From: Escherichia coli
GTDB lineage: Bacteria > Pseudomonadota > Gammaproteobacteria > Enterobacterales > Enterobacteriaceae
Assembly (NCBI RefSeq): GCF_003334305.1
Contig: NZ_QOWS01000007.1
Direction: 5' to 3' (one strand)
Length of the DNA stretch: 64,000 bases
Below, in pieces: positions 28,631 through 42,318 of the stretch. The notes beneath the pieces are model-generated. The model saw nothing but the letters and a program-made list of their open reading frames with translations, was not told where the DNA came from and did no database searches. How positions within the stretch are numbered: the stretch's first letter is position 1; each line of letters starts with the position of its first letter. The position numbers and the translations under genes were made by a program.

Positions 28631-29131
28631 TTAATGGGGCTTGAGACGATAACGACTACTGCGTTTACGTAACGTCCCGGCAGAAAAGAGCTGTTCGAGC
28701 GCATTTCTGGCTTTTTCCAGCGGCCAGCCAAAGTGGGCAGCCACTTCTCCTGCCGTCATTCCCTGACGTACTGATGTTAACAGCGCCAACAACTCGTCAG
28801 CAGATTCCGCGACGATAACTGGCGCGTCGGGTTCCCTTACGGGTTGATTCGGCTGGCGGTTAAAGCCAGTAACCAGCCACTGGGTGTCATCGTCTGGCCG
28901 ACCGATCTCCTTGCGGCTGATGACACGCCCGGTACGCATCGCGGCAGCACAACCTGCGTCCAGCGCCGCACGACACGCCGCCAGATCGCCTTCCACCACC
29001 AGCGTTAAGCGACCAGGGTCAAGCACTTCGTGACTGAGCAGACGAACGTTAGCTGCTTTGAGCATGGCATCCGCTGCATCTATCGCGGCGACCATGCCGT
29101 CCACTTCCAGCAATCCCAGTGCATTGATCAT
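28631..29131 (-). CDS. eutK: Eut microcompartment shell protein with C-terminal nucleic-acid-binding-like domain
   Basis: BMC-domain N-terminus (MINALGLLEVDGMVAAIDAADAMLKAANV); ATG start at 29129-29131 with GGAGG RBS preferred over the track's TTG extension. Confidence 0.9.
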   Translation of the reverse strand: MINALGLLEVDGMVAAIDAADAMLKAANVRLLSHEVLDPGRLTLVVEGDLAACRAALDAGCAAAMRTGRVISRKEIGRPDDDTQWLVTGFNRQPNQPVREPDAPVIVAESADELLALLTSVRQGMTAGEVAAHFGWPLEKARNALEQLFSAGTLRKRSSRYRLKPH

Positions 29132-29143
29132 CGGCAACCTCCG

Positions 29144-29803
29144 TTACGCACGCTGGATTGGATTACGCGCGATTTCCAGCACTGCATCGGTAAAGGCGTT
29201 ACAGGCTGCTTTACACGCGGCCTGGCTACCGGTTAAAAATGCTGCCGAGTAGTTGGTTTCAGACGGTGGCGGGACATAGGTCACCAGCTGTACGTCGGCA
29301 GATTTCAACGCTGCATCAATGCCATAGGTCGCTTCCAGCGGCGGTGCCACCAGATACGCCATCGGATCGCCAAGCGTGATCCCGGCGGTTGATGAGAGAT
29401 AAGAACCGGTACGCGAAACCACATGCGCCAGGAAGGCGGTGTTTTCTGCGTCATTGGCCCACTGGAATGCTGCACCATTTTCAATATGTGCAACCATCGC
29501 ATCCAGACCGGCACGCACTTCCGCCGGGTTTGGCCCACCAAGCATAATCAGCACTTCACCGGCAGTCGGTGACGGGCCGTGTGCAGCGCCCGCATACAGC
29601 GAGCGACCATATACCACTTCCACCATCGCCTGCTTGGTCGCTTCATCAGCGGCAATGTAGGTGACGTCATCGGAATCAGCAGAAATCAGCCCGAGGCTAC
29701 GAATATGCGGCGGCAATTTTAGTTCACGCGCAAATTCAGCGTTAACGGAGGCAATCACCCGCATGGCGGTTACCGACGGTCGAATCAAATCTAAAGCTGG
29801 CAT
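29144..29803 (-). CDS. eutL: Eut microcompartment shell protein, tandem-BMC type
   Basis: 219-aa ORF matching E. coli EutL. Confidence 0.95.
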
Positions 29804-29812
29804 GATGCCTCC

Positions 29813-30700
29813 TTATCGGGTCATGTTGATGCCGGATGCTTTCTGCTCCAGCATACGTTTCGCCAAATCCACAATGACGGCTGCGGCTTCAACCGGCGGC
29901 GTGCCGCCCTGGTGAATGTTAGAGATACAGGTGCGATCGGCCTCAACGGTGGTCGCCATACGCGGCGAGTAAACGGCGTAGCAGGAGAGGCTTTCTGACT
30001 GCCCTAACCCCGGACGTTCCCCCACCAGCAGGATCACCACTTTCGCGCCGAGGATCTCACCGATCTGATCTTCAATCTTCACGCGACCATAACGAACAAA
30101 GAATGGCGTGCCGACTTTCAGCCCGGCCTGTTTCAGGCCCGCCATCAGCGGCGGCAGGATCTCTTCGTAGTTCACGGTGATGGCATCAGTTGACAGGCCA
30201 TCAGAAATAACGACCTGTACGTCCGGATTAGCAACACACTGTGCTTTCAGCGCTTCAACAGCTTCTGCACACAGGCGGCGGCCCATATCCGGGCGAGTCA
30301 GGTAGAGATTTTTGTCGCTAATTTCGGAGCGTACTTCCAGCAAGCCCTGCGCTTTCACCCACTCTTCCGGCACTTCTTTCAGTACGGTATCTTTCGAACG
30401 AGAGTGATCGGCCAGGAAACGCAGCAACGCCTGCGTACGCGGACGCGGACCGGCACGACCGGTACAAACGCGGGCCACGGTGCTGCGACGCAGTTCTGTT
30501 AATACGTCTGCGCGATGCGGGTTTTCAACACCAATCCACGCTTTTGCTTCCGCAGAACCTAAATCCAGCGCGCAGCTTTCCGAGGTCACCGGTGCCGCAC
30601 AGGTGGTGGTGGCGCACTTTGCTTCTGACGGCGCGGGGGCCGTTTGTCCCATTGACGCCATCACGCTGCGTACAATTTCTTCAATCTGTTTTTGATCCAT
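29813..30700 (-). CDS. eutC: Ethanolamine ammonia-lyase small subunit
   Basis: 295-aa ORF matching E. coli EutC. Confidence 0.96.
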
Positions 30701-30720
30701 GATGTGTTATCTCCGCGTCA

Positions 30721-40018: not shown

Positions 40019-40818
40019 TGCGTTTCCCCCAGTCGTTGTTGGATCTGCTTCACCGTTAGCGGCTGCTTCGTTACGCTCAGGATCATCATCACGTAGACCG
40101 TGCTGGAAAGGCGGTTCAGCGCCTGCAAAATGTCCGGGCGTAATACTTCAAAGCTGCGGGTGATAAACACCTGCGCCGCTACGGTTTCGGTTTCCCGCAC
40201 TTTGGTACGTAGCAGATTGAGCAACGCCGCATCGCGCCCGTGGCTGGCTTCCGGCACCAGATGATCGTGGTCGAGATAGCGCAGCGGCTGGTGAGAAAGT
40301 CGATGCAGATCTTCGTCAGAAAGCCCGACAATCGCCTGGCAGCCCAGCGGTTCACCCAGCGCATCGGCGCGCATAATGTTGCCAAGACGCGAACGGATAT
40401 CCGCCAGCCACGGCTGCCACGGTTCCGCCAGTTCAATTTGCAGCCACACTGCCAGCGCAATGGTGCTGTCGAGAACCGCGCGAAAACCCAGACGCGGATC
40501 GCTTTTGGCGACCATTTTTTCCGCCGACAGGTGAGTCAGCGTATCCGGCTTTTTTGCCACCGGCTGGCGGCACAGTTCGCAGCACGCCTGCGGATGTTCA
40601 TCGCTACTGGTCAGCCCATGAACGGGCTGCGGCTGCTGCTGTTCATCGTCAACAAACAGGCGGCCCTGCTCGTCAATAAACTTGATGCGCAGATGGCGGC
40701 TTTCCAGTAACTCCCGGGCAGAGGGCGTCAGGCGACTGTCCGCAGGGAGATGGATCTCTGCGCCTTCGCTGAGCGTATGGTTCGCTCTTAGCCATGCTTC
40801 GGTGATGAAATCTTTCAT
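40015..40818 (-). CDS. eutT: Cob(I)alamin adenosyltransferase, EutT type
   Basis: 267-aa ORF matching E. coli EutT; 4-nt overlaps on both sides. Confidence 0.94.
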
Positions 40819-41516
40819 AGGGATTGCCAGTTAGCCGGCCAGGCGACATACAGGAATTTCACGCTGGATGTCGTACCAAATTCGATACTGGAGCCTTTCG
40901 GGATAAACATCACGTCACCCGCTTTGGCGATCATGGTTTCGCCTTCGTGGCGAACATGCAGCTCCCCTTCCAGCACCATGTCGATTTCGTCGTAGTTCAG
41001 GGTCCACGGGAAGAATGCGTTCTCCCACTGCATAAAACCAGCGGCCATGCTGCTGCCGTCGTCTCCGGTCACAAGATCAGTCAAGCCCACGCAATGCGGC
41101 TCTGCGCCGTCGAAACGACCAAACTTGACGCTGCTGCCATCAATCACTTTGATGCCGCCTTTGCCGGTCACCGATTTGAAGCTCGGCTGCATTGCGCCCT
41201 GCTCCAGCGACTGTTTTTCCTTCATCACTTTTTCCATCAGCTGTGCGACCAGGCTTTCGGTAAACTGGCCTTCCGGCAGCTGGGCAATGATGGTTTCGCG
41301 GATGCGCTGGCTTTCGGTTTTGTCGGCTGGCACGCTGGCGGGCACGGACGCCGTTACCGGGATCGATTCATCACATTCGGTGATGGTAAAACCCAGTAGA
41401 TCCGCCACTTCACGGGCTTCCGGGGTAATAATGCTGGCGCGCAGAACCACGGACATTGCCTGTTCGCCGCGCGCGTGTGCTTCACGAATATCATTCGCTG
41501 TGATGAGTTTTTTCAC
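40815..41516 (-). CDS. eutQ: Cupin-fold eut protein (acetate kinase activity reported)
   Basis: 233-aa ORF matching E. coli EutQ. Confidence 0.93.
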   Translation of the reverse strand: MKKLITANDIREAHARGEQAMSVVLRASIITPEAREVADLLGFTITECDESIPVTASVPASVPADKTESQRIRETIIAQLPEGQFTESLVAQLMEKVMKEKQSLEQGAMQPSFKSVTGKGGIKVIDGSSVKFGRFDGAEPHCVGLTDLVTGDDGSSMAAGFMQWENAFFPWTLNYDEIDMVLEGELHVRHEGETMIAKAGDVMFIPKGSSIEFGTTSSVKFLYVAWPANWQSL

Positions 41517-41970
41517 CTGCTTCCTCCTGTTTGGTGAGAGATGCCAGATAATCCACCAGTTGCTGCACGCTTTGCGGGTCGTGGCTGTTTAGCTCGAAAA
41601 TCGGCTCTTCGAAACCCGTCTCAAGCAATAACTTTCGCGTTGCGGCGACGTCAGCATCTGGCATGTCCGTTTTACTGATGACGGCGATTTGCCGTTTGCT
41701 GACGCCAATATCCAGCAACCCGGCAGGCAACCGACTTTCCGGGTCATTTGCGCCATGGACATAGATCAGCATGTCTACATCCTGTAGCGTGGTAATTAAG
41801 GCGTGATACCAGCGGGGATGGCTAAAATATTCACCCGGCGTATCAATATCGCCCTTATCATTAAATTCCACGGCCTGTGTTTTTCTGGCGAGGGTATAAT
41901 TCCCCTGCAACGCATTAAATAACGTTGTTTTTCCTGCCCCGACGGTACCCACAAACGCAATTCGTTTCAT
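41491..41970 (-). CDS. eutP: P-loop NTPase eut protein
   Basis: 159-aa ORF with Walker A (GTVGAGKTT); matches E. coli EutP. Confidence 0.93.
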   Translation of the reverse strand: MKRIAFVGTVGAGKTTLFNALQGNYTLARKTQAVEFNDKGDIDTPGEYFSHPRWYHALITTLQDVDMLIYVHGANDPESRLPAGLLDIGVSKRQIAVISKTDMPDADVAATRKLLLETGFEEPIFELNSHDPQSVQQLVDYLASLTKQEEAGEKTHHSE

Positions 41971-41982
41971 GAATGCCTCGTA

Positions 41983-42318
41983 TTAACTTTTGGTCATTTC
42001 ACAAAGCGTATAATTTAATAAGCGACCTAAACCGCTGACGGTTTGTGATAACGCTTCTTCTACTGCGCCCACCGAGCCATAAATCACCAATGCACCGCTG
42101 AAGCGGTCGAGAAAACCGATATGCACATCAGCGGCTTTCAGCGCTAAATCACCGGCGATCATCGCCGTTTCGCCGGGAGTTAGCGTCATAATGCCAATTG
42201 CGCCCGCATCCGGAACGCCGATTTTCTTCGCCAGTTCCTCACCGGGATGCGCGATGAGATGCGCCAGTGTGACCTGTTTGCCGGGCACAAATTCCTGAAT
42301 GATGCGTTCTTTATCCAT
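41983..42318 (-). CDS. eutS: Eut microcompartment shell protein (permuted BMC)
   Basis: 111-aa ORF from [17 protein letters not shown] matching E. coli EutS; first gene of the operon. Confidence 0.92.

Follow-up and report, generated by a model that had tools for sequence, protein, structure and literature searches.

The subject of this analysis is the eut (ethanolamine) locus in a 64,000-nucleotide stretch of Escherichia coli DNA (assembly GCF_003334305.1, contig NZ_QOWS01000007.1), referred to below as the window and numbered from its first letter. Seventeen eut open reading frames lie on the minus strand in the order eutS-P-Q-T-D-M-N-E-J-G-H-A-B-C-L-K-R, with a full span of 27533-42318. 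The locus is, with high confidence, the canonical E. coli eut operon, of the EUT1 type, in its usual uninterrupted form. Its eutA-eutB junction is an empty target site for IntZ-type elements such as the prophage CPZ-55, and the window is not a carrier of such an element.

Gene content and type of the locus

E. coli A7 (NZ_CP028767.1) is 100% identical to the segments 28000-43000, 1-28176 and 42176-64000, which together make up the whole window. The first of them, which contains the operon, matches thousands of other genomes at 95-100% identity. The RefSeq annotation of the identical A7 sequence gives eutR, K, L, C, B, A, H, G, J, E, N, M, pta (= eutD), T, Q, P and S on the minus strand, flanked by hemF and maeB. 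Each eut gene was translated from the window and compared with its counterpart in E. coli K-12 MG1655 (NC_000913.3), here called K-12. The genes are listed below with their coordinates, strand and product, and with selected matches to NCBIfam models (NF numbers), matches to solved structures and differences from K-12 in amino acids (aa).

27533-28585, minus strand: eutR, AraC-type operon activator; 350 aa; NF007522 over 1-350/350, 789.6 bits (cut-off 319); 4 aa differences from K-12.
28631-29131, minus strand: eutK, shell protein, BMC-H with a C-terminal domain; 166 aa; NF012010 over 1-166/166; one difference from K-12, K95N.
29144-29803, minus strand: eutL, shell protein, tandem-BMC trimer; NF011934, 402 bits; full-length match to the E. 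coli structures 3GFH and 3I82.
29813-30700, minus strand: eutC, ethanolamine ammonia-lyase small subunit; NF003971, 339.6 bits; A20T and N33T relative to K-12.
30721-32082, minus strand: eutB, ethanolamine ammonia-lyase large subunit; NF011649; PDB 3ABO over 1-453, 1019.5 bits; protein identical to K-12.
32094-33497, minus strand: eutA, ethanolamine ammonia-lyase reactivase; 467 aa; GTG start; NF007991 over 1-467/467, 1073 bits; 7 differences from K-12.
33494-34720, minus strand: eutH, ethanolamine permease; NF011665 over 1-408/408; protein identical to K-12.
34837-36024, minus strand: eutG, alcohol dehydrogenase; NF011998 over 1-395/395, 884 bits; 5 differences from K-12.
36014-36850, minus strand: eutJ, DnaK-like chaperone; NF011660, 401 bits.
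36861-38264, minus strand: eutE, acetylating acetaldehyde dehydrogenase; NF011927 over 1-467, 738 bits.
38276-38563, minus strand: eutN, pentameric vertex shell protein; NF011992 over 1-95/95; DNA identical to K-12.
38670-38963, minus strand: eutM, major hexameric shell protein; NF012018 over 1-97/97; full-length match to the E. coli structures 3I6P and 3MPW.
39002-40018, minus strand: eutD, phosphotransacetylase; NF007233, 410.7 bits; DNA identical to K-12.
40015-40818, minus strand: eutT, corrinoid adenosyltransferase; NF011595 over 1-267/267.
40815-41516, minus strand: eutQ, acetate kinase (cupin); NF012001 over 1-233/233.
41491-41970, minus strand: eutP, acetate kinase / GTPase-like; NF012011 over 1-159/159.
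41983-42318, minus strand: eutS, shell protein, first gene of the operon; NF012012 over 1-111/111; protein identical to K-12.

A sequence-only reading of this DNA had reported 17 contiguous and apparently intact eut genes, a claim that the coordinates, the open reading frames, the K-12 lengths and the NCBIfam models bear out. The range that it gave for the 17 genes, 28631-42318, needs correction: it begins at the eutK stop, ends at the eutS start and holds 16 genes, and eutR lies outside it at 27533-28585. The short overlaps that it mentioned are found between five pairs of genes and measure 4-26 base pairs (bp): eutH/eutA (4 bp), eutJ/eutG (11 bp), eutT/eutD (4 bp), eutQ/eutT (4 bp) and eutP/eutQ (26 bp). 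Nine intergenic spacers measure 9-45 bp; the two longer ones are eutM-eutN (106 bp) and eutG-eutH (116 bp).

Assignment to the EUT1 type is based on four features. The genes are found in the order eutSPQTDMNEJGHABCLKR, on one strand and closely packed, as given by the coordinates, the spacers and the RefSeq annotation. The signature enzyme EutB + EutC and its reactivase EutA are encoded (NF011649, NF003971 and NF007991, all above cut-off). The shell set is full: EutM and EutK (hexamer type), EutS, EutL (tandem type) and EutN (pentamer type), whose models NF012018, NF012010, NF012012, NF011934 and NF011992 align over their full length or nearly so. The accessory set comprises EutE, EutD, EutG, EutT, EutQ, EutP, EutJ, the permease EutH and the AraC-type regulator EutR, each above the cut-off of its own NCBIfam model.

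Intactness and expected function

Frameshifts or premature stops relative to K-12, for which the sequence-only reading had asked that the genes be checked, are absent: all 17 genes have a normal start and stop and the length of their MG1655 orthologue. The proteins show 0-7 aa differences each from K-12, and seven (EutB, H, N, M, D, T and S) are identical to it. Independently of the annotation, every one of the 17 scores above the curated cut-off of its own NCBIfam model. The alignment runs from first to last residue in 15 of them; that of EutB covers residues 4-452 and that of EutC begins at residue 52. EutB, EutL and EutM also have full-length matches to solved E. coli structures.

The encoded proteins would act as follows. 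Ethanolamine together with adenosylcobalamin would lead EutR to activate a promoter upstream of eutS, from which the 17 genes would be read as one transcript. EutH would import ethanolamine, and EutS, M, N, L and K would form a protein shell. Inside the shell, EutBC would convert ethanolamine to ammonia and acetaldehyde; EutA would reactivate EutBC and EutT would provide the adenosylated cofactor. EutE, EutD and EutG would process acetaldehyde to acetyl-CoA, acetyl-phosphate and ethanol. These pathway steps are established knowledge, and the mechanistic understanding comes mostly from Salmonella. E. coli depends on an external corrinoid, so that B12 must be supplied.

Published experiments on E. 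coli link these functions to an uninterrupted operon. W3110 (uninterrupted) uses ethanolamine with B12 as nitrogen source, and the prophage carrier BW25113 does not (Jallet et al. 2024, PMC11334477). BW25113 regains the ability to grow with ethanolamine as nitrogen source once the prophage has been removed scarlessly (PMC11334477). In BW25113, eutS and eutR are induced but eutB is not; the strain lacks compartments and fails to grow on ethanolamine, unlike Nissle 1917 (Clare et al. 2024, PMC7617246). Induction by ethanolamine + B12, compartments and growth have been shown in other uninterrupted E. coli strains (PMC7617246, PMC11334477). Since all genes are intact, and since in K-12 an uninterrupted operon is required for growth on ethanolamine + B12 as nitrogen source and suffices for it once the prophage has been removed scarlessly (PMC11334477), it can reasonably be inferred that the operon is likely functional in this strain, with expression and growth on ethanolamine + B12, at least as nitrogen source.

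Some points weigh against this expectation. Relative to K-12, 32 aa substitutions are found across 10 of the 17 proteins (e.g. EutK K95N, EutC A20T). EutC A20T borders the N-terminal stretch of 20 residues fused to green fluorescent protein (eutC1-20-GFP) in PMC11334477. Carbon use is strain-dependent: ethanolamine does not sustain W3110 as its only source of carbon and nitrogen (PMC11334477). The gene content, gene order, intactness, empty site and frequency in the species are observations, and expression and growth in this strain are expectations.

An alternative is an operon that is intact on paper but silent or impaired in the strain, missense variants or regulation elsewhere in the genome blocking assembly of the compartment or catabolism of ethanolamine. 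EutK K95N is unlike both K-12 and the cattle isolate SMN013SH2; the accession of this EutK allele (WP_097343905.1) is adjacent to those of other A7 proteins, which weakly suggests a rare allele. The use of ethanolamine as carbon source is known to vary between E. coli strains (PMC7617246, PMC11334477). Such impairment is nevertheless improbable: the variants themselves are what speaks for it, every Eut protein exceeds its family cut-off by a wide margin in an alignment of nearly full length, seven are unchanged, and K-12 and SMN013SH2 differ from each other by aa differences of a similar kind. In addition, the ~200 bp nearest eutS and the compared internal spacers are identical to K-12. A likely functional operon is the preferred reading. 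An uninterrupted operon predicts use of gut-derived ethanolamine, at least as nitrogen source with B12; ethanolamine use is linked to the fitness of E. coli in the gut and the urinary tract.

The eutA-eutB junction

The junction consists of the following feature.

32083-32101, no strand assigned: eutA-eutB junction; 11-bp spacer and unoccupied attachment core TCAGGAAG (32094-32101).

The spacer (32083-32093) measures 11 bp, as the sequence-only reading had it. That reading had also stated that CPZ-55 lies between eutA and eutB in MG1655, and the record NC_000913.3 indeed annotates a 'cryptic prophage CPZ-55' there, at 2558691-2565480. The element is 6,790 bp long, carries intZ at one end and yffL-yffS, and is transcribed in the direction opposite to eut. 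When both K-12 junctions were aligned to the window, the 8-bp direct repeat TCAGGAAG, present at both ends of CPZ-55 in MG1655, was found as a single copy in the window (32094-32101), beginning with the three bases of the eutA stop codon. The same alignment revealed no remnant of element DNA at the eutA-eutB junction of the window. An IntZ-type element would consist of a tyrosine integrase and cargo between eutB and eutA, with a duplicated TCAGGAAG; the window has 11 bp and one core.

A single copy of TCAGGAAG means that the attachment site is empty. The integrase and the target-site duplication in K-12, with a single core in the window, indicate an insertion in K-12 and not a deletion in the window.

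Frequency of the open junction in E. coli

The frequency was determined with a 600-bp query centred on the eutA-eutB junction, among complete E. coli genomes (n=5,426). The query is matched without a break in 4,964 of them (91.5%), including K-12 W3110 and CFT073. CPZ-55 is found at a coverage of at least 80% in 213 genomes; its full-length matches are mostly K-12 laboratory derivatives, as judged from rows sampled at even intervals along the ranking. Another ~200 genomes have only partial matches to CPZ-55; in most sampled rows the match is an intZ-like integrase gene at 80-90% identity. A continuous junction is missing in roughly 5% of genomes once the CPZ-55 carriers are set aside (arithmetic on both counts).

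Counts from a 15-kb whole-operon megablast (4,370-4,373 genomes with at least 80% in one place) were rejected as a measure of junction integrity. Pieces up to ~8 kb apart are joined in these counts, so that K-12 is scored as covered despite its 6.8-kb insert; the 600-bp junction query was used instead. A large class of genomes with ~52% coverage was likewise rejected as interrupted operons: it is a joining artefact at the repeats between eutG and eutH described below, and the operon of SMN013SH2, one of its members, is complete, with 316 bp between eutG and eutH.

Some natural isolates carry other elements at the same junction. In NCCP 13717, an intZ-like integrase gene next to eutB heads a different island of ~10 kb (gadC, murI, IS1), and a stop codon interrupts eutA. 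Strain 127 has a related island beside eutA and lacks eutB, eutC, eutL and eutK. In addition to gadC, murI and IS1, the island (~10 kb) contains an intZ-like integrase gene, a helix-turn-helix gene and what is left of a gad-like decarboxylase gene; its coordinates in the extracted loci are 20178-30300 (NCCP 13717) and 10005-18900 (strain 127). The eutA/eutB junction has been described as a hot spot of prophage insertion, and eut as part of the core genome (PMC6652756).

The uninterrupted eut operon is thus the species norm, already documented, and says little on this strain in particular. MG1655 is the exception, and its CPZ-55 insertion should not serve as the reference state of the species for eut. 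The arrangement in the window had been called ancestral; this is supported by the derived state of K-12 (intZ and the 8-bp duplication) and by the uninterrupted junction in most genomes. The outgroup comparison with Salmonella, which is reported to have the same operon, was taken from papers.

The open junction could also be secondary, an IntZ-type element having once been present and then precisely excised, as probably happened within K-12 (W3110 without CPZ-55, MG1655 with it). The junction of W3110 is continuous while its sibling MG1655 carries CPZ-55, and precise integrase-mediated excision leaves exactly a single 8-bp core, as seen in the window. This history is very unlikely: with ~91% of genomes unoccupied, parsimony favours a site that was never occupied, and the junction holds no element remnant. 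An excised site and a never-occupied one would have an identical sequence, and the difference has no functional consequence.

Hardly any credence is given to a reversible switch at the eutA stop codon/eutB ribosome-site junction, in which integration and excision of IntZ-type elements would toggle ethanolamine catabolism on and off in populations, this strain being 'on': siblings MG1655 and W3110 differ only by occupancy and ~200 genomes have partial CPZ-55 matches, but nothing in the window supports it and the two natural occupants lie in decaying operons (eutA internal stop; loss of eutBCLK). A never-occupied, empty site is retained as the preferred reading.

Non-coding features in and around the operon

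Four non-coding regions of the operon have features of their own.

28586-28630, minus strand: eutK-eutR spacer; perfect 12-bp hairpin just upstream of eutR, -22.7 kcal/mol, z-score -4.08, no U tract; identical in K-12.
34721-34836, minus strand: eutG-eutH spacer; one inverted pair of repetitive extragenic palindromes (REP), forming a bacterial interspersed mosaic element (BIME), with the REP consensus visible; two hairpins, -44.4 kcal/mol.
38564-38669, minus strand: eutM-eutN spacer; terminator-like hairpin at 38637-38662 (terminator scan), 10-bp GC-rich stem followed by a U-rich tract, directly after eutM.
42319-42610, minus strand: maeB-eutS intergenic region; 292 bp; expected site of the main EutR-dependent promoter; the ~200 bp nearest eutS identical to K-12.

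The eutG-eutH spacer varies by 100-bp repeat units: it measures 116 bp in the window, against 216 bp in K-12 (16109-16324 of the extracted locus) and 316 bp in SMN013SH2 (19771-20086 of the extracted locus). This variation in REP copy number splits whole-operon BLAST matches and leads to the spurious class of ~52% coverage.

The eutM-eutN spacer has a folding energy of -43 kcal/mol (z-score -3.17) and is identical in K-12. As this hairpin and that between eutK and eutR are identical in K-12, they are features of the species and not of the strain. Both may plausibly set the relative abundance of transcript segments; the eutM-proximal hairpin might attenuate transcription or stabilise the upstream transcript.

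The position of the main eut promoter upstream of eutS is taken from PMC7617246. A sigma-70 consensus scan upstream of eutS gave no strong match, and promoter-like sites were fewer than expected from shuffled sequence. The missing strong match fits an activator-dependent promoter, for which such a scan is uninformative. An Rfam scan of the whole window found two tRNAs at 1-153 only, and no RNA family in the eut region. At the other end of the operon, hemF and eutR are convergent, with 5 bp between their stop codons (27528-27532); a terminator between them is not evident.

Other differences from K-12 in the window

Three further loci were noted. Between tRNA-Lys (81-156) and yfeR, at 157-607, the genes xapR-xapB-xapA-yfeN, which follow lysV in K-12, are absent, and only a small open reading frame of the FlxA-like family (276-617) is found; the xanthosine utilisation genes are probably missing from the strain at the lysV-yfeR locus. 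At 63369-63994, a vapB-vapC toxin-antitoxin pair follows ypfJ; K-12 MG1655 has purC directly after ypfJ, without the pair. Lastly, only positions 12388-12389 separate yfeK (12019-12387) from cysM (12390-13301); K-12 presumably has yfeS between yfeK and cysM.

Comparison with known systems

One related system is the 17-gene eut operon of Salmonella enterica, of the EUT1 locus type, reportedly described by Kofoid et al. in 1999. It belongs to a different species with a diverged sequence and is compared here through papers; the Salmonella gene order and the history of W3110 and MG1655 come from secondary citations and the junction query. Salmonella has been stated to contain the same operon (PMC6652756), and the eut locus of E. 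coli W3110 is reported to resemble that of Salmonella LT2 in gene content, each protein being >73% identical between them (PMC11334477).

K-12 MG1655 has the same 17 genes with the same lengths, and its flanks and compared internal spacers are identical or nearly so. It carries CPZ-55 at eutB/eutA, flanked by the duplicated TCAGGAAG, where the site of the window is empty; this insertion abolishes eutB induction and growth on ethanolamine (PMC7617246, PMC11334477).

A further group of related systems is made up of the uninterrupted operons of E. coli K-12 W3110, Nissle 1917 and uropathogenic or enterohaemorrhagic strains, which have the same 17 genes, order, strand and neighbours (hemF and maeB). 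The window differs from uninterrupted E. coli operons by alleles only (~1-3% of DNA) and by its single REP pair between eutG and eutH, against two in K-12.

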